21,579 nucleotides of DNA from an uncultured Verrucomicrobiae bacterium. Lineage in GTDB: Bacteria; Verrucomicrobiota; Verrucomicrobiia; Limisphaerales; JAFGQR01. A program made the translations under genes and the position numbers. Under the pieces are notes generated by a model. The model did not search any database, was not told the DNA's origin, and saw only the letters and a program-made list of their open reading frames with translations. The stretch lies in NCBI GenBank assembly GCA_963788655.1, contig CAWBHS010000085.1:1-21579 (forward strand). Reading direction: 5' to 3'. Below are positions 2,396 through 20,522 of this stretch, in pieces (positions within the stretch are counted from its first letter, which is position 1; each line of letters opens with the position of its first letter).

Positions 2396-3408
2396 CAGTT
2401 GTTATGCTCGATCGCCACAATCCGGACGTTCTTGTTCTCGAACACCCGGACCCAGTTCGCCTGGCTCTCCAGTTCCGCGTTGGTCGGCGAGTCGCCCGCC
2501 ACGCTGGCGCTGGTGAACTTCACGCCCCGCGGATGCAGGATGTAACGGCGCCGATTGATCAGCACCGTGTCGCTGTCCAGCGGCACCCGCGCCAGTCTCC
2601 ACGCCCTCCGTGCCGTGCCCGCCTTGCAGCGGCTCGCCATCCAGCGGCGCCACGCCCTGCCCGAACGCGCCCGGCCCGAACAGGTAGCTGGTATAGACCA
2701 GTCCATCCGTGGTGCCCGCTCGCGCCGGCAGGTTGTCATCCACGATCACCCGCCGGCCCTGGAACGTCCGGATCTGCGCCTTGCCCTCGCTGTCGGGAAT
2801 GAAGTCGATCAGGTCCAGCTTGCGCAACGCCGCCTCGGTCGCCGAATGCATCGCCATCGCCGTCAGCCGGTCCGCCCGGTCGCCCAGCTTCGCCGTCGCA
2901 TCCACGAACGTCGCGCCGTTCAGGCGCGTGCTCGCCGATTGCCCGGCCACTGTTTCGCTCGCGATGGCCAGCAGGTTGCCCGCCATGCTCGCCGCCGCCG
3001 AAGATGCCTTTGAGACACGAGATGATCAGGCCCTCGTCCGTGCGCGCCCAGTAGCCGGCCACCAGGTCCACGATGGCCTGCATCGGGTCATCGCCCGAAA
3101 TCACCTTCGCCAGGTGATTCACGCTCCACACCTGCGCATCGTTGTGAATGCGCGCGATGTCCTGGTCGCTGGTGATCTTGTTCACCGCTCAGCGACGCCG
3201 AGTCGCTCAGGATTTGCCGGGTCGCGGTCAGGTCCTTCCAGAAGGGCATCTTCACTTCGCGCCCGCCGCCCGCCGCCAGTTCGTCGAACTCCGGCGCACT
3301 CTCCACGATGCCCGACTGGCCGAACGCGGACAGTTCCGCCGTCCGCTCAATCGCGTATTTCTCGAACTCCGTCGGGATGATGATGTCGGCAACAGCCGTC
3401 TTAGCCAT
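2395..3408 (-). pseudogene. phage major capsid (coat) protein, ~3 frameshifts
   Basis: ATG 3408 with GGAG upstream. Fragments join as MAKTAVADIIIPTEFEKY...KMPFWKDL / ...SGDDPMQAI...YWAR / ...AKLGDRADRLTAMAMHSA...FQGRRVIVDD...YTSYLFGPGAF / ...LINRRRYILHPRGVKF...SPTNAELESQANWVRVFENKNVRIV. Shifts near 3186, 2995 and 2595. Directly follows the scaffold gene. Confidence 0.88.
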
Positions 3409-3459: not shown

Positions 3460-4230
3460 TTACGCCGCCGCTTTCAGCCGCTGCGCCAATTGCGGATCGG
3501 ATTTCATCAGTTTCATTTGCTCCGTGAGATTCCACGTTTCCTTGCGGAAGGGATTCTTCACGGGCCCTTTTCCACCGACTCCCCCGGAGCCGTTGCCGGC
3601 AGCCCCGCTGCCCGCGTTGGATTCGAACAGATGGGGAGCTTCGGCCACTTGCGTGTCCACCCACTCCTCCAAAGTCATTGGGGTCACCCCGTCCTTGCCG
3701 TAGCGAACGGTCTCGCCGTCCGCTTCGAACGCCCGGGGCACACCGTTCTCCAGTTTGAACACACTGCGCGCCCGCGCGGTGATGTCCGTCAGCGCCGTCG
3801 GACGCAGACCGCGCTTCGTGGCGGCGGTGATGACGCCCTGGTCGATCTGGATGGCCGTCAGGCGACTGGTCAGCGACTGGCGCTCGGCCGTCAACGCTTC
3901 GACCTGCTTGTCCCATTCGGCCTTGAGTCCCTTGACGCGGTTCTCGACCACCTTGTCCACCTCGCCGGCCTTGAGTTGCTGCTCTTCCTCGAGCCGCTGC
4001 TTTTCCTCAGCCAGCTTGCGGACCTCATCGGGATCGATGCCATCGAACCGCTTCTGCAGATCCTCAATCTGCCGCTTCAGGGCCACGTTGTTCTTTCGGA
4101 ACTCGTCCAACTTGGCCTTGTCCGGGACCCCGTCCACGTCCAACTGCCAGGCGCCTTCACGCTCTGCGTAAAAGGGCTGATGTTCCGCCGGAATTTCGTC
4201 CTTCGATTGGTATGTAAACTTGAGTGCCAT
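3460..4230 (-). CDS. phage capsid scaffolding protein
   Basis: 256 aa, charged coiled-coil, with PHLFESNAGSGAAG linker and KNPF...WNLTEQMKLMKSDPQLAQRLKAAA C-terminus typical of scaffolds; immediately upstream of the capsid gene. Confidence 0.85.
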   Translation of the reverse strand: MALKFTYQSKDEIPAEHQPFYAEREGAWQLDVDGVPDKAKLDEFRKNNVALKRQIEDLQKRFDGIDPDEVRKLAEEKQRLEEEQQLKAGEVDKVVENRVKGLKAEWDKQVEALTAERQSLTSRLTAIQIDQGVITAATKRGLRPTALTDITARARSVFKLENGVPRAFEADGETVRYGKDGVTPMTLEEWVDTQVAEAPHLFESNAGSGAAGNGSGGVGGKGPVKNPFRKETWNLTEQMKLMKSDPQLAQRLKAAA

Positions 4231-4511: not shown

Positions 4512-4778
4512 ATGAACGTATCCCTGACACCTGAACTCGAAAAACTGGTGGAGAAAAAGGTCAAAAGCGGCCGTTACCAGTCCGCCAGCGAAGTCGTACG
4601 CGAAGGCCTTCGCCTGCTGGACGATCAGGATCGCTTGCGTGAACTCCGCCTGGATACCGTTCGCCAGCAAATCAAGGTCGGTCTGGACCAATTGGATCGC
4701 GGTGAAGGCATTCCCGGTGACGAAGTTTTAAAGCGACTCCAAAAGAAGAGCGCAGCCGCCAAGCGGCGATCCCGATGA
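4512..4778 (+). CDS. parD: type II TA antitoxin, ParD family (ribbon-helix-helix)
   Basis: MNVSLTPELEKLVEKKVKSGRYQSASEVVREGLRLL signature; ATGA overlap with the toxin. Confidence 0.92.
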   Translation: MNVSLTPELEKLVEKKVKSGRYQSASEVVREGLRLLDDQDRLRELRLDTVRQQIKVGLDQLDRGEGIPGDEVLKRLQKKSAAAKRRSR

Positions 4779-5098
4779 GCGCCTTTATCTTGGCGCCAGC
4801 CGCAGCCGATGACCTCGAGGCTGCGTGGGATTACTACGCCTTTGAGCTGGAAAACATCGAAGCCGCCGATCACATTCGCGATGAACTTTTCGCGGCCATG
4901 GGCGAGTTGGCCAAAACACCCGGCATGGGCCACTTCCGCAGCGATCTCTCCCCGGAACCGTTGCGCTTCTGGAAAGTCCGTCGTTACTTGATTATTTACC
5001 GGAGCGAGAGACGCCCCATTGAAATCGTGCGTGTATTGCACGGATCACAGGATGTGGGGACCATCCTGGAAACCGATTCAGGGGAATCCTCAGATTAA
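4775..5098 (+). CDS. parE: type II TA toxin, RelE/ParE family
   Basis: ILAPAAADDL...LAKTPGMGHFRSDL...YLIIYR...IEIVRVLHGSQD; coupled to parD. Confidence 0.92.
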   Translation: MSAFILAPAAADDLEAAWDYYAFELENIEAADHIRDELFAAMGELAKTPGMGHFRSDLSPEPLRFWKVRRYLIIYRSERRPIEIVRVLHGSQDVGTILETDSGESSD

Positions 5099-5193: not shown

Positions 5194-6684
5194 TCACGAG
5201 ATCACGGGACTCGATGATGACTTCTGAACGGGTTCATCATCATTGGAATCCCGGTTGTCTTTCTCTTCATCAATCAGCTTCGATTCCTCTGCGTTGGTGC
5301 GTCCTTCGGGTAGGATTTCTCCCCGACGGAACAAATCCAACATGGTGTCCTGACTCATCGCGCCGCTTTGCCAGGCTTTCACCACGGCAGTCAGTTCCGT
5401 TGCGGACATTCCCTTCGTGCTGAAGTCGGTATTCAGTTCGATGACGACCTGGTCATTGGTGACATCGTCCGGCAGTTCCTCCGTCGAATTCCACCAGTAG
5501 GCCCAGGCGAGCACCTGCGACAGTGACGCGCTCACACTGAGTGCAATGTTGCTCAGGATACTGTTCTCCCCGCTCTGCCGGAGTTCAATCGCTTCGGCGC
5601 TTTCCCCGACCTTCTTTTGGCTTTCCAGAAGGCGGGCGCCCAGCACCGCCATCAGACGCTCATCCCGATCCAACGCACGCTCGAATGTCTTCAGTCCCTG
5701 CCCGGTGTATTCCAGGAAGCCAGCGGTGGCACCCGTGGTCTCCGTGACCCAGGCAGTGCTCGATCCGATTCGGAGCGTGGCGTCCTTGTCGAATCCACTC
5801 ACCCAGGCAGTCGGCAGCGCGGTGAAATGCATCCCATGTTTGAAGTCCGCATCCAGACGATAGTGATCCAAGTTCACGGTGATGACATCACCGAGGGGAA
5901 GCTTCTCGCAATCAGGCAGGAAATGACGCGGACCATGAAAAACGAACGGAATCATCGGCAAGGGTTTCCCCAGGCGCAAAGGTATCCGGGTTTCCTTGAG
6001 TTCCCACTCAGATTGTTGGCGCTTCGATTTCTTTTCTGCTCGTTGCCAGATGTCCACCTGGCACACATGACCAGTTTCACCAGGCACGAGCTTTAACACA
6101 CGGAGTTGATCGACTTCCTGTTGCTCGAACTCATCGTCATTCTGCATTCCACCGTCCACAGTCTCAGCAAGCACGACCAGCGTCAGGACACTACGACCAT
6201 TGATTCGTCCGACTCTCCAATTGAGGATGTTCTCCGCGGCATACCGGGTGACATACACCCGGTTCTCATGGTGGCCCGTGCGGCTCGCACCTTCCCAGTC
6301 CACGAGGCTACCAACTCGACCAATGCTCATGACTTCAGTCACGATGGTTTTCGCATAGGTGGTGAATGGCGTCCCACGCATGTCGGCATCATTGGCGAAG
6401 TCCGCAAGCGCTTTTCCAATCGCACTCGATCCTTCGGGAAGCTTGATGAATGGAGGACGACGAAAGATCAGACCGACGTAACCGTCCGCAGTGCGAGCGG
6501 TCGCGTTGAAAAAGGAGGCACGCGCACGATAGGCACCATACTCGTCATCCGTCTGGGCTTCGAGACGCGGTAGATACTTTTCCCCCGCGGACTTCACGGC
6601 ATCTTCCCCGGCGAGAACATCACGCGCGCGCAACCAAGTCGGCAGGTTGGCGTCGTATTCAGCATGAGTCGTGTTGACTGGCAT
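5194..6684 (-). CDS. phage portal protein (DUF4055-type)
   Basis: ~496 aa intact ORF, probable start 6684 (MPVNTTHAEY). YLPRL...Y.AY.ARA.FFNAT.RT, IPFVFHG, NLDHYR..AD, ESAEA motifs and acidic tail; leads the scaffold/capsid cluster. Confidence 0.85.
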   Translation of the reverse strand: MPVNTTHAEYDANLPTWLRARDVLAGEDAVKSAGEKYLPRLEAQTDDEYGAYRARASFFNATARTADGYVGLIFRRPPFIKLPEGSSAIGKALADFANDADMRGTPFTTYAKTIVTEVMSIGRVGSLVDWEGASRTGHHENRVYVTRYAAENILNWRVGRINGRSVLTLVVLAETVDGGMQNDDEFEQQEVDQLRVLKLVPGETGHVCQVDIWQRAEKKSKRQQSEWELKETRIPLRLGKPLPMIPFVFHGPRHFLPDCEKLPLGDVITVNLDHYRLDADFKHGMHFTALPTAWVSGFDKDATLRIGSSTAWVTETTGATAGFLEYTGQGLKTFERALDRDERLMAVLGARLLESQKKVGESAEAIELRQSGENSILSNIALSVSASLSQVLAWAYWWNSTEELPDDVTNDQVVIELNTDFSTKGMSATELTAVVKAWQSGAMSQDTMLDLFRRGEILPEGRTNAEESKLIDEEKDNRDSNDDEPVQKSSSSPVIS

Positions 6685-7199
6685 ACACCTCATTTCTACC
6701 ACGGGTTATCATGGATCGAATCGATGCACCGCAACCCGTTCGTGTCCCAGCAGGCACAGACGCAGACACCACGAGGACAAGGTAGGACATTCGATTCGCA
6801 TCAAAACTCTTGACGCGTTTTTCCAGGGGTATCCCTCCACCCAAACCTTTCCAGGTTTCCTGAATCCATTTAGGCACCCCAATGACGCAAGCGCATCCCC
6901 CAATGTCCGACCCAACCACAATTCCCAATGTCGAAAGTCCAGTAGCTTGCGAACGCGCCTCCGCTGGCGCGACCTCCAATGCGCCTTCAGTAATCCGAAG
7001 CCCGCTCCAAAACCACCGACTTACGCTGGCGCACCAGCGAACGCTGCCAGGAAACGCAAACACCAGTGTGCCGGCTAACCAACCATTCGTAACCGGTCGC
7101 GCTGCGAAATTCCACCGCGCGCCAATGCGAACGGCTCAGGTATGCAAGCGGCATCACGCACAGGACACCAGTGGGGACTTGAACCGGTCCGGGCACCGA

Positions 7200-8760
7200 G
7201 TCGCGGCAGGGTAACTTGAACGGGTCATTCCACGCACGGTCACTGACGCGCATGCTCGCAAGCTCGCACCGGCCGCCGGTCTGCGTTGTTCCAGCGCTGC
7301 TCTCCGGCGGCCTTGCGCTACCGGCGCGCGCGTTAAGGCGGTGCTGGTAATTCCAGCCCGCGCACCAATCCCGCCCAAGTCTAATTCCAACGGGCTCTTG
7401 CGCGCGCCGGTCAGTGACCCGAACTGCTCGCCTTACGGCTCGGCAGTCGGCAAGGCTTGGAATTTGGAAGGGCGGCTCAAGCGGTGGTGGTTACGGCGAA
7501 CGCCAGCCAACTTCGCGGCCCAATTGCGCGAATGGCAGCCGCGCCCGCCGCCCTGGGGACTGGTCGTGTCTGCCGCCTGCTGGCAGAGCTTCGCCCCCGC
7601 TGCCGGTCCTGTCGCATCCGCTTTCGGCCCGGCAGTCGGCGCAGACGGCAGAGAGGGTTTTCGAACGGGCCGGCCAAGCGTCGCGAGCTTGCTGCTGCCG
7701 GTTCGTTTAGCCCCGCACACTCCCGGCTGCCTCCGGCACCGCGCAACTCGCGACCCTTGGCCGCGGCCGGGGGCGGCTGACTGCGGTCCAACTGAGCCCG
7801 CGCCAGTCAGCATCGTACGTTCCACTCGCGCGACCCGCTCCGCAAACAACGCTCCACGGACGCTCCTGTTCCAGCGTCCACGGCGCTCCCTGCCGTTCCG
7901 GCGCAGATGGAGCCAGACAGCCGATCACCCCGGCTCCGGGAGATCAGCCGCTCCGTTCCTCCGCGACTGAACTCCCTTCGCCCCCCAATGTCAGTCTGAC
8001 CTCTGGCCAGTCGGGCTCCGCGACGGGCCGACTGGCCAGCCCACCACCCCACTGGCCACGGCGCCATCGCTCCACCCGCCCAGCCAGAAGTCAGAGCAGC
8101 GCGGCCCCCGCGACCCGCTTCGGAACGGCGGCAGACTGCGCGTTAAATCGCTCCGGCTACGATGCTCGTTCCTGTGCGTCTGGGCCTCCGCGATTTGAAC
8201 CCGCAGACTGCCGCCTGATGGATGCCTGACTTCGCTGGGGCAGAACGCTCCATTCCATTCCCACTCCGCCACTGGCCGCCGACCTCCGCCCTTCGCGCAC
8301 TCCGGACATCGCCCGCCGGCCATTGGCTCCGTGTCCATTTCCTGGCGCGATCTGCCCCAGCGAAGACAGGCGGATGATGCGCGCCAGTCACGCTGGCTGC
8401 TACACGACCCGCACCCAGCGCGCCAGTCCCGACCGCTGCCGCGTATCCAGTGGAGGATGGTCCAGTCGGAGGGCGACCCCGCCGTTGGTTGGACTGCTTT
8501 GCTCGGGCCTGGCATGCGGGACCGGCCCAGGGCTACGCTTCTCGCTCCAAGTCTTCGCTGCGAGGCTGGGCACTGGCCCTTGCTGACCCTGCCGGAGCCA
8601 ACACACATTGTGCGTGCGCTCCGCACATATTCCTGTTCCCGGTCGCCGCCCCAACGGGTCCCCCCCGGCGGAATATGTCGCACAATGTGGAGTTGGCTTC
8701 ACCAGGGTCTTGCATCCCGCACGCCAGGCCCTCGCTCCGCGGTTTGATTGGAAGTTTCCG
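7200..8760 (-). other. large, highly structured non-coding region A (candidate ncRNA or ssDNA structure); boundaries approximate
   Basis: At least 10 helices of 8-25 bp checked by eye (see findings); overlapping ORFs are R/A/P/G-rich and not credible. Strand is inferred from only three wobble positions. Confidence 0.6.
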
Positions 8761-9013
8761 GGGTCGCTGGGGGAATCATTTCGCTGCGCTCCATTAAGGG
8801 CAATGCTTCGCAATGCCATAGACACAAAAAACGGTTTTGGTAACAGCAGCCAAGGAGGTGCCCAAGTTTCTTCAATTCGCCAGTGATCCCCCCGCGCCGT
8901 ATTCTCTTCAGCCAATTTGACCACCAGTGCGTCCGGCCTCCACCCAAAACGATTTCGCATGTAATCCCTCCAACGAGAAGCCCTGACGGCTCCGCCGGAA
9001 AAAGCTCTCCAGC

Positions 9014-9366
9014 ATGATGAAAAGCAACAACGAAAAAATCACCAACATCACCTTCCAAGCCAGCGCCACCATGTCGGCTCCTTATATCACCCAAGTCACC
9101 GACGCCATCGCCCAGCGCGAAGTCCAGGCAGCCCTCAAGGCGCTCCAGCAGGCCCTGGCCCCGTTTCAGGCCACGGTGACCTACGACAGCTTCGAGCACT
9201 TCAGCACTGGCGGCGGCATGCACGACTACGAAGTCCGCTACCAAGTCCAGATGCCGACCGACCAGGCGAGCGCGTTCCTGCAAGCGCCGCGGCAACCGAG
9301 TTGGCCGGCGCAGACGGCGACTGGACGTTCGAGGTCCCGGGGTTTGTGTTGGGGCCTGTCGGTTAA
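9014..9366 (+). CDS. hypothetical protein, probable frameshift near 9286
   Basis: Protein-like to ...QASAFLQA, then continues in another frame as AATELAGADGDWTFEVPGFVLGPVG* (TAA 9364-9366), just before the next gene's RBS. Confidence 0.6.
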
Positions 9367-9380
9367 TGGAGGCCCTGACC

Positions 9381-9722
9381 ATGAAACACACGCTCCAGTG
9401 CTTCACCGTCACTTCCCCGACCGCAAAGGCCAAGGTCGCCCAGGTGATCGAGTTGCTGGGTGGAACCTGCGCGCGATTGCCACGCCCTTCGAGCGGCATT
9501 CGCTGGCGCTTAACACGATCGAGCGCGGAAGAGCTTGGCATTGGCGGTTGCTCCCCCGAGGATGGGCCGATCCAGCGTTCATTTTCCGCCACGGGCAGGC
9601 TCAAAACGAAAAGGGCGTTGGCCACATTCATTCCAAGTCTCAGTCTCAAAAGGAACCGAGCCCTGCCGCATGCTTCCCAGTTTGTCTTCGCCGACCGGGG
9701 TGAGTTGCTCCCCACGGAATGA
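9381..9722 (+). CDS. hypothetical protein
   Basis: GGAGG upstream of ATG 9381; stop overlaps the next ATG (ATGA). Confidence 0.5.
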   Translation: MKHTLQCFTVTSPTAKAKVAQVIELLGGTCARLPRPSSGIRWRLTRSSAEELGIGGCSPEDGPIQRSFSATGRLKTKRALATFIPSLSLKRNRALPHASQFVFADRGELLPTE

Positions 9723-10065
9723 ATCCGCGTCGCAGCCCGCACGAAATCAAGCCCGTTCTCCGACTCTCGCCCAAACCGGGTGGTGATTATCGGGGGGCAG
9801 GCCGTTAGTCTTTGGGCGGAACACTACCAGAAAGATGCCTCCCCGAGGACGGGCCTGCGCCCCTATACCAGTTTTGATCTCGACGTTCTGGACGGCCGCA
9901 CGGACGTATTAAAGTGCAACCAAGCGCTTGAGGCAGAGCCCTTCTTCCCGCACCCCTCCGAAAACACGGCAAACTCCGGCAAGATCGTCACGGTCGTCGG
10001 CGGCTCTGAATTTGAGATCGACTTCCTGCATAGTCCCAACGGCTTGACGCCCGCGGCCAATTGCC
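9719..10065 (+). pseudogene. Pol-beta-superfamily nucleotidyltransferase fragment
   Basis: Frameshift near 9780, then VVIIGGQAVSLWAEHY...PYTSFDLDVL...EIDFLHSPNGL (GG + DxD + third Asp). Protein-like sequence is lost after ~10060. Confidence 0.7.
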
Positions 10066-10655
10066 AGCAACCGGGAACGAAAGCGACGTGGGGGACGGTG
10101 CCATTGGCGAGTGCCGTTCGACCTGCCGTCGGATGGCCATGTAACACGCCAGTCGCCCACGGTGAAATGGCCAGCATGTCTGACTCAAGGGATCATCTGC
10201 GCCGATGGTATCGGATCGGAACGGGCCTGAGAATCCGCTCTTCGCACCACCAACATGGCGGGTTGAGCAACCCGGATAAGGATGCACTATGCGCAAAACA
10301 ACGCCGAACCTTGCTTCGGTGCAGGCGACACGGAATATGGTTGCGATGGGCCGCGCCGGTGGGGTTGGTTTAACGATCCCCTCAAGCGACTTCAGCAGGT
10401 GATGGGACAGATGACCAAACGGAAAGTGCGGAATGGATGGGGCTGGTCAAGCGCCGCGTATTCAAGTAAAAGGGGGGCTCGTGACAGAACATAGCGCAAA
10501 CTGCCCAGCGTATCGGCGTTGTGCCACCGCATCGCTTGCTGGTGAGCCCATCCAGTTTGCGCGGTCGGTTGTCGCGCATCCGACACCCATGGTTTTGGAA
10601 CCTTGAATCCTGCGCGCGAGCGAGGTAAACAGTTCACCGCATACATTAGACAGGC

Positions 10656-11222
10656 ATGGAAACATTTTTTGACGGTGTCAACGCACTGCGATGGCATTAC
10701 GGGATGATCGGGCAGCCCAAAACTGCTGCCCCTCCGCCTCTGGAGGACTTTGCCAAGGCCTGCGGTCTGGCCTTGGGCATGAAGGATCCAGCTACGTTCG
10801 AGTGTTTTTGTCCGGTGCTCGTTTTTAATCGCTGGACTCCCGAGGCGCTGATGGCGGCCACGCCCGAGCGGCAACGCGGGCGCTTGCGGCTGGCAGCCGG
10901 TATCGGATTGTTTTTTATGAACTTTTCCCGCCTGGGAATTCCCTGGGCGATGGAAACAACCGTGGCTTTGAAGCGGTTGGAATCCTTGTTGCACGCTTTT
11001 CGCCTGGACCAAGACCCGTGGAACAACCACGACGGCGCCTCTCAGCCCGAGGGATACTACTTGGAGTTTTTCAAGCCTTACGGTCTTTACGTGAACTGGC
11101 CATTGATTGATTTCTGGAAACAGTTCCAATGGACCCAGCGCCAAAACCACGAGCGAGTTTGGCGAATGCTGGAGGAACAGGAGGCCCGGAGCACACCCAC
11201 CACGCACGAACTGATGGCATGA
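10656..11222 (+). CDS. hypothetical protein, putative partner/antitoxin of the downstream nucleotidyltransferase
   Basis: 188 aa, protein-like composition, ATGA overlap with 11219. Confidence 0.7.
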   Translation: METFFDGVNALRWHYGMIGQPKTAAPPPLEDFAKACGLALGMKDPATFECFCPVLVFNRWTPEALMAATPERQRGRLRLAAGIGLFFMNFSRLGIPWAMETTVALKRLESLLHAFRLDQDPWNNHDGASQPEGYYLEFFKPYGLYVNWPLIDFWKQFQWTQRQNHERVWRMLEEQEARSTPTTHELMA

Positions 11223-11878
11223 AATTCCAACATAAAGAACCCTCGCTGGAGGAGAAACGAGCGCTCAAAGGAGCAACCAACGTCGAGGCTTTGCTTTACG
11301 CCTTGGATCAACGGATGACCGGCAGAGTTCGAGTCGTTCTTGTCGGACGGGCGTCATACGAAATCGGCAACCCCCAACTCACGAACCAACTCCGACAACG
11401 GTTGCAGGAAACGACCCATGTTGATGACCAGACCGGACGGGTATTGTTAACCGATGACATTGATTGCTATCTGACCGAGGAAGCGCAAGCCATTGTGGAC
11501 GCCGGACACCCGGACTCGTATGTGGCCAAGTTGGCTGGCTGCTACGTTCACGCGTTGAACGAACGCACGCTCATCCTGCCTCGGGGATGGGAAGAAAGAC
11601 TGCAAGCGGTGCCAGGGCAATTTGAGCATTTGGAACTCCAGAGGCTTGAAGTCCTGGACTTTGTGGTTTGCAAGGGCGCGGCCGGACGCACCAAAGACAT
11701 TCACTTTTTACAGGCTTTTTGCGAAGCGATGAACCTTCGCCAGGCTGATGTAGCGGGCAGAATTGAACAAGTCCTGGCTCAGCCGTCACTGCAGTTAAGG
11801 TTCGACACTCTTGCTCAACGCAACCTCCGTCGGCTCGTCGGCAAGGTCTTTCCACCCTCACCGCCTCAGATCAACTGA
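11219..11878 (+). CDS. DUF6036-like nucleotidyltransferase
   Basis: VVLVGRAS, LTDDID (DxD), LPRGWEERL, K.AAGRTKD motifs; start at the ATGA overlap. Confidence 0.8.
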   Translation: MKFQHKEPSLEEKRALKGATNVEALLYALDQRMTGRVRVVLVGRASYEIGNPQLTNQLRQRLQETTHVDDQTGRVLLTDDIDCYLTEEAQAIVDAGHPDSYVAKLAGCYVHALNERTLILPRGWEERLQAVPGQFEHLELQRLEVLDFVVCKGAAGRTKDIHFLQAFCEAMNLRQADVAGRIEQVLAQPSLQLRFDTLAQRNLRRLVGKVFPPSPPQIN

Positions 11879-15723: not shown

Positions 15724-17080
15724 ATGGTTTTCAAACGAACGAAGTCAATCACTTCGGTGAAGACGGCCGTGGCTTGGGCCAAGAGCTACCTCGACGAGGT
15801 GACGAAGAACCGCACGAAGAAGACTCTCGGAGATGGGGGCCAAGTTGGGCAAGATGTACCTCACCAGCCGTCCCGCCGGACTACTTTCGTCCCACGGTTA
15901 TGTCCGCGAACCGGTCGAGCGATTTCAAGCGGCTGGCCGGCTAACTGCCAACGAAGCGGTGCTTGAGTTCATTTGCGGCTACTGCCGGGAGCGGGCCCGC
16001 AGGGGGAGGAAGATCATGGGATTGCGGGCGATTGCCAGCCTGGATCCAGGCGTCACCGTCAAGCTCATCGCCAAGGGTGTGGACTTCGATCGGTTGCTGG
16101 TTCGGGCCATCGAGCAAACGTTCACGGAGGCGGCGGCGCGGCACTATCCCGGGGACGAACTGGGCTATTTCATCGGCATCCATCACGACCGCGAGGACAA
16201 GTTCGGGCGGCCGCAGATTCACAGTCACATTTACGTGGTTCCCCAGACCCGGAAGGGGCTGCGGGTGAGCCTGGCGGACCACACCAAGCCCGGTCGCGCG
16301 CAGAATCCGGTGATGGTGGATATGCTTACCGAGCTTCGGCAGACCTATGCCCGCAACATCCGCCAGGCGCTCTTGCAGGAGCGGATTCGCTTTGGCGAAG
16401 CGCTCCATACGCCGGAGTGGAATGCCCTGGCCAAGCTCTCGGCCTGGCTGACCGGGTGCGACTTGGATGAGCGAAGAATGGAGCCGGAACAGGCCCGTCG
16501 CTACGGCCCGGCCCGGTTTATATCTTACCTGAAGAACCTGGATCGGAGAGCGATCGAACGTTGGTTGAAGGTGCTTCATCGCCGGATGGCCGAGGAATCC
16601 GCTGGAAATCCCGCGGAGGCGATTTCCCGGCTCAGGGCAGCGGTTAAGTCCCTTGAGGAGGGCCGCGTTGACCTGGCTCGGATCCGGCAGGAGTTGTGGA
16701 CCAACGCCATTGATTGGTACGCCGGAGCCGGCCAATCCTCCGAGGTGGAGGGGACCTACGTCTTCGTCCCCAAGTTCACCATCGCGAAACGTCGAACCCC
16801 GCCAGTGCTTTGCCAGAAGATGTTTGATTTGCTGGAGCAGGTCCGGCTCAGCCGCCTGTTGCGGCGGGTCACCTTCCTGGCGGCGGTGGCGGACCTGGAG
16901 TTGGACTATGGCGGTGTCCCAAGACGGCCCCCGACTGGGTGCGCGTCCTGGAGCGATGCGTTGAGGACGACACTCTGCCGAACAAAGCGTGCCTCCAGCA
17001 GGCGCAAGATCTGGAAGCGCCAGCGCTGCGCTCGCAGGGCAAGTCCGTGGCAGCTTTGCCCGAAAAGCCCACCTCAATGA
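15724..17080 (+). pseudogene. HUH-superfamily relaxase-like protein; frameshifts near 15835 and 16920, C-terminus uncertain
   Basis: N-terminal WAKSYL (candidate catalytic Tyr), LRAIASLDP (motif II-like), YFIGIHHDREDKFGRPQIHSHIYVVP (HxD..HxH motif III). Confidence 0.75.
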
Positions 17081-18734
17081 CGGAGGTTCGCTTTCGGCGG
17101 TGCCCGATTCGTTGTACACCACCACCGCATACTGGCCACTTTGGGAAGGCTCGAGATTGGTAAAGGTAAGCGTGGCATTGGTGGCGCCGGCAATGGGTGT
17201 GCTGTTGTAATGCCATTGATAGAACAGCGGGTCATCGCCGGTGGCTTCCACATGAAACTCGGCTTCGTCTCCCGGAAAAACCCTCACGTTGATTGGCTGA
17301 GTGCTGATCGCCGGCGCTGGGCCACCCGCTTGAGAACGGCCCGGCGTTGGAAATGCCGCCAGCCAACTTGCCGGATCATTTCCATAAGCATCGTCGCTCA
17401 GGCGCTGCAACGAAGGGCCGCGCCCGTTGGCAGCCGTCGGCCACGGGGCTTTGTCGTTGTAACGCACCGCATCCACGGTGATGAACGGAACAATGCCAGT
17501 GAGGCCGGGCACACCCGGTCGCTGCAATTCCAGTCGCTCGCCACTGTTTTGGAGCGCGCCGTTCCAAGGACCGAGGACGGGAACATCTTCCGGCACGGAT
17601 ACCCGGGCGCGGAAGTCCGCGGGATTGGTGGCCACGAGCAACAGCCATTGACCGGGATCGAGGATGATATTCGTCGGAAACGTGTAGCCAAGACCGTTGA
17701 GCTTCCAGGTGTTGGCCGGTCGTATCGGATCAAACAAAGCCACGTTGGTGGCGGAGATGTTCTTCAGTTCGACGAACTCGTCGCTTCCCGGAGCCGGATG
17801 ATAATGAATTTCGCTGATCACCACCGGGCCGACCAAAGGACCGACGTTGGTCTCACGCAGCGAGGGCGCGATCTGCGCGGCGAAATCCTCCTGTCCCGTG
17901 CTCAGCAGATGGCGGCCAAAGGTAACGCCCGAAGCCGCCGCGCCAAAGCTGAACCCATGGCTATAACCGGTCAGGTTGGTGGCCGCGTCGCCCGAAATGA
18001 GATACACCTCATCGCCATCCGAACTGAGGGCGAAGCTGGTGTTCAGTCCGGGAGTGGGATTGAAGTCGGATTCGTCGAAGACCGCGAAGCCACCCGCGGA
18101 CATCTTCGTGCCGGCCGGGATGCGGAATTTCATCGGTTGCGCCGGATCGTCCGTCAGGAACCAGCCGCCAACGTCCACCTCCGTTTCCGTGGGATTGAAG
18201 AGTTCGATGGCATCGAGGTCCGGTGGAACCGACGCGCTGAGAACTTCGTTAATGACAATCGGCGGAATGGTTGGGATTGGATCGTCCATTCCCGGTGAGC
18301 CGCCCGGAAGCGCGCTGGCCCGCCATTGGTAGGGGTCGTCCGGGTCGCGGATTGGCCTCGGGATTCACGGGCACCAGCGAATAACCGTAGCCGTCCGGAG
18401 TGACCGGCCACGGCGCGCGATCATTGTATGTCACGGATACCGCCGGCGTGCCCAACACGTGCGCCAGGCGGAGGGTTTCGCCACCGTTGTCGAGCTTGCC
18501 GGCGTAAACTCCGTTGACCGCCATGCCGGGATAGCGTTCCGTGAAACGGGCCGGATTACGGGCGAGTACAAAGAATTGGCTTGGCGCCAACCGGGTGCCA
18601 TTCGTGAACACGAACGTGATGCCGGCGGTGAATTGCATTCCACCGAGATTCAGCGTGTTCGTGCCCACGTTCTTCAGTTCGAGAAACTCGTATTCATCGC
18701 CGTCCACCGCCTGGCCGTTCAGGTCGAACCCTAG
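17070..18734 (-). pseudogene. fragment of a lamin-tail-domain (about x3) + Ig-like domain protein, truncated at both ends
   Basis: EFLELKNVG, IVINEVL...DAIELFNP...DVGGWFLTD, VVISEIHYHP...EFVELKN, Y.D.APWP, then ISTQP...LFYQWHYN...NATLT...SGQYAVVVYN. Frameshift near 18340. Confidence 0.88.
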
Positions 18735-18844
18735 CCTGGATATTTCATAAGGGCGTTCATAATTGAGGGTCAAAACGCGATTCCACCCGCTGTTGACGCG
18801 GTTTTCCACCCCGTTCGGTTTAAGCAACCGCCACCGACAGTGTG

Positions 18845-19063
18845 TTAATCCTTTCGGGAGCGTTGCCGGGCCTTGGGAGCTGGAACCTGTTTTCTGACCA
18901 GATGCAATTCGCCCCGGTCGAGCAACTCCCACTGCACCGCTTCGCCGGGTTGCAGCCCAATGGCCGCGGCCAGGGGAATGGGAAAATAGACATACAGTTT
19001 GGGCGTTTGGCCTTTGGGGCGAATGGCCTGCACTTTGAGTGAATATTTCACTGGATTTTCCAT
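18845..19063 (-). CDS. AbrB/MazE/SpoVT-like DNA-binding protein inside the IS
   Basis: KVQAIR...KLYVYFPIPLAAAIGLQPGEAVQWELLDRGELHL swapped-hairpin pattern. Confidence 0.78.
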   Translation of the reverse strand: MENPVKYSLKVQAIRPKGQTPKLYVYFPIPLAAAIGLQPGEAVQWELLDRGELHLVRKQVPAPKARQRSRKD

Positions 19064-19085: not shown

Positions 19086-20522
19086 ATGGCTAACGCAAGT
19101 CAAAGCTTTCTGTTTGAGGATTTGGGACCGCGGCGCGTGCAAGCCGATTTCTCTGGCGGCACCCTCTCCACCGACGCCGGCGCGTTGCTCCTGCGCCAGG
19201 TCGATCGGAGCCTCGGGTTGAGCGCCGAACTGGCCCGTTGCTTTGCCGACGGGCGCAATCCGATCTGGGTGGACCATTCAGTGCCGGAGTTGTTGTGTCA
19301 GCGCCTCTTCGGCGTGGCGCTGGGCTACGAGGACCTCAATGATCATCAACGCTTGCGCTTGGACCCGCTGCTGGCCGCGGCCTGCGGCAAGACTGATCCG
19401 CTGGGGGAACAGCGGGTGTTGCCCCAACATCGGGGCATCGCGCTGGCGGGTCCCGCGACGCTCAACCGCCTGGAGTTGTCGAATAACAAACAGACCCGCT
19501 GCCACAAATTGCCCCACAACCCCGCCCAGATCGAAGCGTGCCTGCTGAAAATGGGGACGCGTTGCCTGCCCAAACACGCCACGGAGGTGGTGGTGGATTT
19601 GGATGCGATGGGGCATCGGCTCCACGGCTTGCAGGAGGGGCGGCATTTCAACGCCTACTATGACGATTATTGTTATCTGCCGCTCTACGCGTTTGTCGGG
19701 GACTTCCCGTTGTGGGCGCAACTGCGCACCGCCGAGCACGAGGCGGCGCATGGGGCGGTGCCCGCACTGGAGAAGATCGTGGCGGCCATCCGGCAACGGT
19801 GCCGCAAGGCGCGGATCATCATTCGCGGGGACAGCGGGTTTGGCCGGGAGGAGATCATGGCCTGGTGTGAGAGTCAACGAGAGGTGTACTACTGCCTGGG
19901 CTTGGCCAAGAACCCGGTGCTGATTGAGAAGCTGGGGCCGGCGCTGGCCCAGGCGCGGGCGCGCCACTGTCTGAGCGGGGCCGAGCGCGTGCGGGAGTTC
20001 ACCGAGTTTCGGTATCGGACACGCAAGAGTTGGAGTCGGGAGCGCCGGGTCATTGGCAAGGCGGAGGTGATGCGGGAGGGGGAAAATCCGCGCTTCATCG
20101 TGACCAATTTACCGGCCAACGGGTTTAAAAAGGAACGGGACAAGACGCGCTTCTGTCCGGCGCGGCTCTACGAAGAACTCTATTGCGCGCGGGGGGATAT
20201 GGAAAACAAACTCAAGCAGCAGGTGTTGGATTTGCAGGCCGACCGGATGAGCACGCACCATCTGGCCAGCAATCAGTTTCGGCTGTGGGAGGCGATGTTC
20301 GCTTACCTGTTGTTGGAGCGGTTGCGCACGCTGGGGCTGAAGGGAACGGAGTTGGAGCGAGCGACGGCGGGAAGTCTGCGGTTGAAACTGTTGAAGATCG
20401 CCGCCCAAGTGCAAGTGAGCGTGCGGCGCGTCTATGTGCAAATGAGCAGCGCCTTCCCACTGCCAGAGCTCTTTGCCCTTTGCCACCGGCGGCTGATGCG
20501 GCTGTCGTCCCCGGCGGGTTAA
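19086..20522 (+). CDS. IS1380-family DDE transposase
   Basis: DFSGGTLSTDAGALLL, GYEDLNDH..LRLDP, VDLDA, IRGDSGF, YCARGDMENKLKQ, NQFRL; intact 478 aa. Confidence 0.95.
   Translation: MANASQSFLFEDLGPRRVQADFSGGTLSTDAGALLLRQVDRSLGLSAELARCFADGRNPIWVDHSVPELLCQRLFGVALGYEDLNDHQRLRLDPLLAAACGKTDPLGEQRVLPQHRGIALAGPATLNRLELSNNKQTRCHKLPHNPAQIEACLLKMGTRCLPKHATEVVVDLDAMGHRLHGLQEGRHFNAYYDDYCYLPLYAFVGDFPLWAQLRTAEHEAAHGAVPALEKIVAAIRQRCRKARIIIRGDSGFGREEIMAWCESQREVYYCLGLAKNPVLIEKLGPALAQARARHCLSGAERVREFTEFRYRTRKSWSRERRVIGKAEVMREGENPRFIVTNLPANGFKKERDKTRFCPARLYEELYCARGDMENKLKQQVLDLQADRMSTHHLASNQFRLWEAMFAYLLLERLRTLGLKGTELERATAGSLRLKLLKIAAQVQVSVRRVYVQMSSAFPLPELFALCHRRLMRLSSPAG

Follow-up and report, generated by a model that had tools for sequence, protein, structure and literature searches.

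Large structured non-ribosomal RNAs are, to our knowledge, rare in bacteria and their viruses, and GOLLD, ROOL, OLE and raiA are known for unexpected architectures and for functions that are still open. GOLLD is a very large, multi-junction, non-coding RNA of roughly 800 nucleotides (nt) whose function is not known. In PMC5737381, GOLLD is described as often located in prophages and near tRNAs, ROOL is given an average length of 581 nt, and only ribosomal RNAs, GOLLD and group II introns are said to exceed ROOL in size and complexity in bacteria. RNA-only assemblies of ROOL are described in PMC12286853, which suggests, by analogy, a possible use of big folded RNAs by phages. Here, a stretch of 21,579 nt from an uncultured Verrucomicrobiae bacterium (assembly GCA_963788655.1, contig CAWBHS010000085.1) was analysed, and this whole stretch is called the window. 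Upstream of a phage portal protein gene, it contains a conserved structured element that runs from position 8831 down to position 7237 on the minus strand. The best reading of this element is that it is a member of a very large structured non-coding RNA family not described before, a new multi-domain phage RNA of the GOLLD/ROOL kind. The presence of a structured RNA family that is real, conserved and encoded on the portal-sense strand, be it one molecule or several, is considered likely.

Taken loosely, the GOLLD/ROOL kind comprises non-coding RNAs of more than 500 nt with many covarying helices that are carried by phages or prophages, and each of these features was found here. The element resembles GOLLD in its great size, its multi-junction folds and its occurrence in prophages, and it resembles ROOL as a large ornate RNA of prophages. 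In comparison with GOLLD, however, it is about twice the size, has no tRNAs nearby and no Rfam match, is fixed between the gene of the terminase protein TerL and the portal gene, is found in one order of Verrucomicrobiota in the genomes searched, and is built as a string of self-closed modules. In comparison with ROOL, it is roughly three times the size and has another host range, another genomic context and, again, no Rfam match. Searching the whole window against Rfam 15 at the gathering score gave no matches, and membership of GOLLD, ROOL, OLE, the introns, pRNA and the Csr/Rsm families, as these are modelled in Rfam 15, is excluded. The models of HEARO, RNase P, tmRNA and 6S were likewise unmatched at the gathering score. 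At E ≤5, the only match in 6600-9100 was DUF3800-XI (8468-8529, minus strand; 21.2 bits against a threshold of 37.8), which is sub-threshold and was treated as chance, and four homologous loci (53,945 bases) gave no hits at E ≤0.1. A tRNA/tmRNA scan found none, and BLASTN against a phage collection gave no match. Full-text literature searches yielded no description of the element; short fragments of it may be among the supplementary motifs of PMC10690425, which reports an IMG/VR screen for short structured motifs with a mean length of 67 nt.

A preliminary description of this DNA had proposed a densely paired non-coding element of about 1.5 kb, of no recognised family, and this was borne out by the helices, by the folding energies, by the lack of a convincing gene in 6703-9013 and, as to the family, by the Rfam search. 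All 11 helices that it listed are present. Six of the nine helices with arms of equal length are entirely Watson-Crick, and the other three are Watson-Crick except for one G-U pair each when read on the minus strand; these three single mismatches are A-C on the plus strand and G-U on the minus strand, as had been claimed. In helix 8224-8248/8347-8371, 23 of the 25 positions form Watson-Crick pairs. The element is slightly larger than first described, as an iterated nhmmer profile aligns from 8831 to 7237 (1595 nt); this profile was seeded with the window sequence, and the extent of the match is informative while its E-value is not.

Module folding energies were compared with dinucleotide shuffles (50 each) on both strands. 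The z-scores on the minus and plus strands were -8.25 and -7.48 for 8496-8740, -5.9 and -4.5 for 8215-8380, -5.3 and -5.2 for 7990-8100, -4.4 and -6.0 for 7237-7420, and -2.8 and -2.7 for 7740-7990. In a separate folding run, 7990-8400 on the minus strand reached -8.19, and none of 100 shuffles was as good. The coding controls 5600-5850 and 9100-9350 gave values between -0.4 and +0.65, and an unconserved spacer (6750-7000) gave about -2.3. The expectation of better folding than in shuffled controls thus held on both strands for most of the region and failed for 7450-7740.

Multiple relatives of the element have been identified. A first pass with BLASTN gave patches of similarity in four of 60 other genomes of the same order, and in two of these (G051 and G004) the patches directly precede a portal-scaffold-capsid block and keep the same relative orientation. 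Scanning genome contigs with a single portal protein confirmed no relative, and loci were fetched with an alignment of three portals, resulting in 80 genome loci from Verrucomicrobiota metagenome-assembled genomes (MAGs) and 74 IMG/VR viral contigs, 154 in total. With iterated nhmmer, the element was found in 69 of these portal-linked loci (56 of the 80 genome loci and 13 of the 74 viral contigs), with collinear matches of which 167 out of 168 are in portal orientation. At least one module is present in 54 of the 59 loci whose portal is at least 55% identical to that of G051 and which have at least 3 kb of upstream DNA, and in two of the 30 loci with portals below 45% identity to it. A covariance model of one part, module D, detected this module in 25 of 151 sampled genomes of the order (21 of 108 genera) and in none of 150 sampled genomes from elsewhere in the phylum; these counts come from samples and mean not found in those searched. 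The family therefore appears, in the genomes searched, to be confined to one order of Verrucomicrobiota, a group of bacteria from soil and water, and to one clade of phages and prophages. In several MAGs (loci L019-L098), portals of this type occur at three to five loci on different contigs, which indicates that a single genome or bin often contains several copies of these phages.

The position of the element is constant. In the relatives, its span is about 1.2-1.9 kb (about 1.6 kb in the window), the genes for TerS and TerL lie upstream of it, and it is located between TerL and the portal, in a gap of 2074-6828 nt (median 4694; 43 loci). In four loci (L038, L040, L042 and L050), the conserved start of the first module, module A, is found 92-99 nt past the end of TerL. 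A G+C-rich stem-loop (GGCCCCCUGGGAUGGAGGGGGCC) without a U-tail stands directly after the TerL stop and before module A in the same four loci. In other loci, 0.2-3.7 kb of variable DNA separates TerL from the element, and in G051 this DNA holds two opposite-strand open reading frames (ORFs) of no known family. The preliminary description had placed the element where a terminase gene is expected, which does not agree with the relatives, as these have the element between TerL and portal; the terminase is missing from the remnant in the window. Rather than substituting for the terminase, the element is an additional, constant feature of the interval from terminase to portal. The neighbours of the homologues are portals, and no relaxase or plasmid context was seen.

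The structure is strongly supported by compensatory changes among the homologues in modules A, C and D. Because RNAalifold recovered few helices from plain MAFFT alignments, folds of single sequences served as the structures, and these were tested against the alignments by counting double-change cells, meaning cells changed on both sides of a pair, against shuffles and against partners slid along the alignment. For module D (7237-7449), a sequence-only MAFFT alignment of 48 copies, combined with the minimum-energy fold of one relative, gave 257 double-change cells against 116 in shuffled and 72-92 in slid controls. The covariance model R1 made from the module D alignment found 67 copies, all 67 in portal sense, and the model-fitted alignment (67 matches, 63 pairs) gave 426 against 164 shuffled and 82-117 slid, with a covariation score of 0.256 against about 0.04 and six helices that are 91-95% paired. 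For module A (8490-8764; 42 copies, 82 pairs) the numbers were 492 against 161 shuffled and 74-109 slid, and for module C (27 copies) 188 against 65 shuffled and 29-48 slid. In module A, a helix of 19 pairs is 98% paired and 15 of its pairs changed on both sides, and in module C helices 1-3 are 88-96% paired with 18 of 22 pairs changed on both sides, percentages that are inflated by the retention in both modules of only those pairs that were at least 75% paired. As a coding control, two portal segments from the same 41 loci were taken through an identical procedure and gave 18 and 11 double-change cells, with 14-29 in slid controls, while module A rerun by this procedure gave 494. The pair filter does not explain the contrast with the slid and coding controls.

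Many of the helices that had been listed before are among those supported by covariation. In module A, these are the closing helix 8715-8730/8506-8521 and the long inner helix 8680-8704/8590-8613. In the first sub-domain of module C (7990-8100), helix 8087-8094/7996-8003 is supported. In the multi-branch domain of module D, the supported helices are P1 (7411-7419/7238-7246), P2 (7400-7410/7321-7331) and P3 (7304-7312/7271-7279). In smaller sets of relatives, compensatory variants were observed by eye for 8127-8151/8190-8215, for 7743-7763/7671-7692 (in at least six loci) and for 7641-7652/7569-7580.

These data also bear on the question of whether the region could be a decayed protein gene, such as a terminase, or chance pairing in G+C-rich DNA. 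The prophage is degraded, with its capsid gene in three frames and its terminase missing, and the region has a G+C content of 65-73%, both of which would suit such an origin. However, tblastn with the TerL, TerS and portal proteins of the relatives found nothing significant in 6703-9013, intact relatives have TerL plus the element, and there is no translated conservation. The five longest ORFs in 6703-9013 have no Pfam or PHROG match. Of 11 ORF translations from 6659-9742, nine had no tblastn hit in the 154 loci and the other two hit the closest nucleotide relatives only. In the smallest gaps between TerL and portal (L040 and L060; 2074 and 2343 nt), no same-strand ORF is longer than 126 amino acids. 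A decayed terminase or other gene was ruled out by the tblastn and ORF family searches and by the presence of both TerL and the element in relatives, and chance pairing is contradicted by shuffle-controlled z-scores down to -8 and by coding controls without covariation. The probability of either origin is considered negligible.

The folded strand can be deduced from the pairs and from the loops. Pairs that are mostly G-U on the portal-sense strand (47/62, 36/41 and 28/42) would be conserved A-C mismatches on the other strand, and with a strand-symmetric choice of pairs G-U exceeded A-C by 292 to 202, in cells that are not independent. In the window, GGA[GA]CG occurs 16 times in sense and once in antisense, with 2.5 expected, and GCGNAGC occurs eight times in sense and not in antisense. 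Over the 69 loci, the counts are 441 in sense and 59 in antisense for GCGNAGC, and 127 and 5 for GAGC-N3-4-GCGA. Owing to the G-U excess and the strand-specific loop motifs, the portal-sense strand is taken as the folded strand, and the functional molecule would be single-stranded with the polarity of the head-gene transcript. These observations, together with the covariation in three modules, the fixed synteny and orientation beside the portal and the lack of an Rfam match, support the first of two alternatives in the preliminary description, a large non-coding RNA on the minus strand co-oriented with the head operon.

In the second alternative, a single-stranded DNA (ssDNA) structure would act on the genes that start at 9014 on the plus strand. 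More generally, an ssDNA structure that forms upon unwinding of the phage DNA could be a replication or packaging signal or a promoter like Frpo/ssi. Frpo/ssi elements are hairpins that mimic -35/-10 hexamers and lie in plasmid leading regions beside transfer genes. A position beside the packaging genes could suit a packaging signal, and hairpins with GCGAAGC-type loops are very stable in DNA as well, as in the d(GCGAAGC) mini-hairpins. On the other hand, G-U (G-T in DNA) wobbles are kept as the majority state, the structure spans about 1.6 kb with multi-branch domains, and its orientation is fixed to head-gene transcription in nearly all matches. The context is a phage head module and not a plasmid with a relaxase, and no promoter-like hexamers were found in 6500-9200. 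Conservation of the element does not extend to the genes from 9014: no similarity to the equivalent ORF of a relative was seen, and tblastn gave no hits for 9014-9703. Action on these genes was not supported, and an ssDNA structure in general is regarded as very unlikely. The simplest reading of the single-stranded molecule is that it is RNA.

The RNA architecture is rich in repeated motifs. Each module is closed by its own helix, and many hairpins are capped by G-N-A or G-N-N-A loops. In addition, a motif of about 30-50 nt, CCAG-x1-C-x2-CGC ... GAG-y2-A-y1-CGUA, occurs up to three times per element; its x and y positions covary, conserved C-A and G-A oppositions lie between them, and the copy in the window is at 8569-8534, in the module A hairpin 8561-8579/8524-8544. 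This architecture would suit an RNA that displays a number of similar sites, whether these make tertiary contacts or receive a multimeric protein. A likeness to the sponge RNAs CsrB and RsmZ can also be drawn, as these have many hairpins and loops with a repeated GGA motif, which here is enriched and mostly unpaired: the GGA of the GGAGCG motif is unpaired at 31 of 48 positions, against 33% over the whole fold. The host genome encodes two CsrA homologues. Sponge RNAs are, in contrast, a few hundred nt long and not known to have conserved long-range multi-branch domains, the context of the GCG-N-AGC and GGAGCG motifs differs from what we take to be the known CsrA consensus, and no Rfam sponge family matches the element. 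The idea of a CsrA sponge is kept as a lead only.

Within the RNA reading, a sub-case rather than a competitor is an array of separate medium-sized RNA genes (A, B, C and D, 150-450 nt each) clustered in the terminase-portal gap, comparable to tRNA arrays. This is possible, at a probability clearly below even. It would agree with the terminal helix of each module and with the module content, which varies between loci (ACD in 30, ABC in nine, ABD in seven and ABCD in five), including the doubling of module D in five loci. An array of independent genes is less easily reconciled with the single order and single orientation of the modules in all loci, with the same loop and internal-loop motifs in different modules, and with the lack of promoter or terminator signals between modules in the window.

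A further explanation, considered improbable, is a cis-acting leader, in which the element forms a long 5' untranslated region on the portal and head mRNA and controls translation, stability or processing of the late transcript. The element always immediately precedes the portal and shares its strand, its start less than 100 nt past the TerL stop in four loci is consistent with one continuous transcript, and no promoter or terminator of its own was found. However, it is 1.2-1.9 kb long with at least four independently closed domains, and the bacterial leaders known to us are far smaller. Furthermore, an unconserved spacer of about 530 nt lies between module D and the portal in the window, and in several relatives these two are at least 550 nt apart. 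The modules duplicate and vary regardless of the portal start, and an orphan copy of module B is found away from any portal gene.

Multiple points weigh against a single giant RNA, or against the RNA reading as a whole, and the choice of RNA over ssDNA is itself inferred. A search of sequencing runs for the element listed no RNA run, only three DNA runs in which its share of words is small. A scan of its ends for promoters and intrinsic terminators found neither, with no promoter-like sites in 6500-9200; terminator-like sites number five, against 2.5 expected, and fall within its helices. When all column pairs of 31 full-length copies were compared, no helix joining one module to another was convincing, and the G+C-rich candidates of 5-7 bp were ambiguous and not accepted. 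Because such helices were not found and the modules are gained, lost or duplicated between loci, the one giant RNA could be several adjacent RNAs. The sequences compared are related phages and not independent samples, and the pair filter raised the pairing percentages of modules A and C. The stretch 7450-7740 folds no better than shuffled sequence (z of +0.75 and +1.37), although its helices 7569-7580/7641-7652 and 7671-7692/7743-7763 are among those that vary compensatorily in relatives by eye. Finally, the window copy may be decaying: one side branch of module A that is present in relatives is deleted, and module D, with 83.6 bits (E 5e-24, minus strand) against the R1 model, scores lowest but three of the full-length matches, which reach up to 232 bits. 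As it lies in a prophage remnant without a terminase and with a split capsid gene, this copy may be a relic.

The remaining parts of the element can be placed in order along the minus strand. The 5' leader (8765-8831) has small hairpins with G-N-A loops (GCGAAGC at 8811 and GCGCAGC at 8789), and profile positions 22-100 are common to 12-38 loci. Between modules A and B lies a long hairpin (8215-8380; profile coverage of 16-20 sequences, common to fewer relatives), with arms 8224-8281/8314-8371, which form an inverted repeat (I1) of 58 nt that is 74% complementary and has a 25-bp core with 23 Watson-Crick pairs. Module B (8126-8215) has the helix 8127-8151/8190-8215 around the most conserved 45 nt or so (about 8148-8192). 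BLASTN matches to it were found in 14 loci with 87-97% identity over 30-54 nt; RNAalifold predicted only five pairs, and by eye the closing helix occurs as GGCGG/CCGCC, GCCGA/UCGGC, GGUGG/CCACC and GGCGU/ACGCC. An orphan copy of the module B region is present in the genome of the window on contig C60 (L017:7511-7769; profile positions 506-720, E 6e-18), with no portal or terminase within 15 kb, and adjoins a DDE_3 transposase fragment and a UPF0175 antitoxin-like ORF.

The first sub-domain of module C has, in addition to the supported helix, helices 8077-8086/8004-8013 and 8060-8070/8020-8029 and the hairpin 8028-8039/8003-8014. Its second part (7657-7989) consists of hairpins rich in GGAGCG/GGAACG and holds helix 7743-7763/7671-7692. 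In one sub-clade (L072:5300-5560; L081, L098, L106, L110 and others), module C has four to six similar hairpins in a row, with GCGAAGC or GCGGAGC loops, the linker UAUUGC and stems of differing sequence; this run is missing from the sub-clade of the window, and a tandem-repeat finder misses it because the stems differ. The linker 7450-7656, with helix 7641-7652/7569-7580, is weakly conserved, with 6-10 loci aligning. Module D is doubled in L071, L096, L097, L046 and L043, with copies about 2.1-2.4 kb apart and the second ending 200-500 nt before the portal. Downstream of module D, about 30 loci (for example L106:6449-6560) have a further conserved stretch, "module E" (...AAUGGAAACCGUGA...UUGAGCGC...GCGCGAAC...), which is absent from the window. 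The spacer 6703-7236 between element and portal is unconserved, with ORFs that have neither a family match nor tblastn conservation, as is the stretch 8832-9013 upstream of the element, where relatives have variable cargo and then TerL; neither flank has relatives by nhmmer.

The window is an entire contig (C85; 21.6 kb) of a 9 Mb genome in 115 contigs that is 86% complete. The head genes are on the minus strand, and upstream of the portal here means higher coordinates. The portal gene (5194-6702; DUF4055/phrog_145, E 1.6e-125) is the fixed downstream neighbour of the element; because its alignment with relatives starts only at residue 7, its true start is probably near 6684. It is followed by the scaffold gene (3460-4230) and the major capsid gene (about 2398-3408), both on the minus strand. 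The capsid gene (2398-3408) is broken over frames -1, -2, -3 and -1, and its pieces have 84-92% protein identity to the intact G051 gene over most of the length and 61% over the last piece. TerL is absent from the window (best tblastn E of 0.74 anywhere in it with the TerL of relatives), and no terminase of the relatives' type was found in the rest of this 86% complete genome. The window thus represents the remnant of a prophage, an assembly that contains indel errors, or a combination of the two. Two more fragments of related portal genes, at C49:29100-29351 and C44:7050-7178, one of them with an in-frame TAG, are further remnants of the same phage type in this genome.

Several other genes surround the head module. 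The scaffold gene is separated from the portal gene by a ParD antitoxin/ParE toxin pair (4512-5098), which is encoded on the opposite strand. Upstream of the element, four opposite-strand ORFs (9014-11878, plus strand) occupy the slot of the variable cargo that relatives have between TerL and the element, and only 11129-11878 has a family (DUF6036 nucleotidyltransferase). Further on, the intervals 15833-18932 and 19086-20522 comprise minus-strand genes for Lamin-tail-domain/Ig proteins, with which a long ORF of the plus strand overlaps, and an adjoining DDE_Tnp_1_4 transposase.

For the large structured RNA, a working model can be proposed from position and architecture. The RNA would be transcribed within the late head-gene transcript, because the start of module A shortly after the TerL stop in four relatives leaves little room for a promoter. 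It would then fold as a string of independently closed domains with G-N-A and G-N-N-A hairpins and the repeated internal-loop motif. The RNA itself, expressed late, could be the functional product, either as one 1.6 kb molecule or after cleavage into pieces the size of a domain, and could be a scaffold, a decoy or a GOLLD/ROOL-like self-assembling particle tied to capsid assembly or packaging. A parallel can be drawn with the pRNA of phage phi29, a structured RNA that the phage encodes and that cooperates with its portal and packaging motor, as the element is a constant neighbour of portal and terminase genes. The pRNA has about 120-174 nt and interlocking loops and is found in phages that are not known to have a conventional TerS/TerL pair. 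In contrast, the element is about 1.6 kb, its relatives encode TerS and TerL, and it has no Rfam hit. In a bolder version, which is rather unlikely, one RNA of 1.2-1.9 kb would be the largest non-ribosomal structured RNA seen so far in a bacterial virus and would participate directly in building or filling the capsid. It might do so by self-assembly into an RNA particle, or as a scaffold whose repeated CCAG/CGUA and G-N-A loop motifs gather portal, terminase or coat subunits. If true, a capsid role would explain why the element is locked between the terminase and portal genes.

The family about doubles the size range of phage RNAs and has strong comparative support, with hundreds of compensatory changes and a clean coding control. 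Its repeated loop motifs, duplicated domains and expandable hairpin arrays make it a good subject for cryo-electron microscopy and for searches for protein partners. The constant address between terminase and portal is a concrete lead on what giant phage RNAs do. The seemingly "empty" terminase-portal gaps of uncultured phages can hold major non-coding genes that are missed by gene callers.

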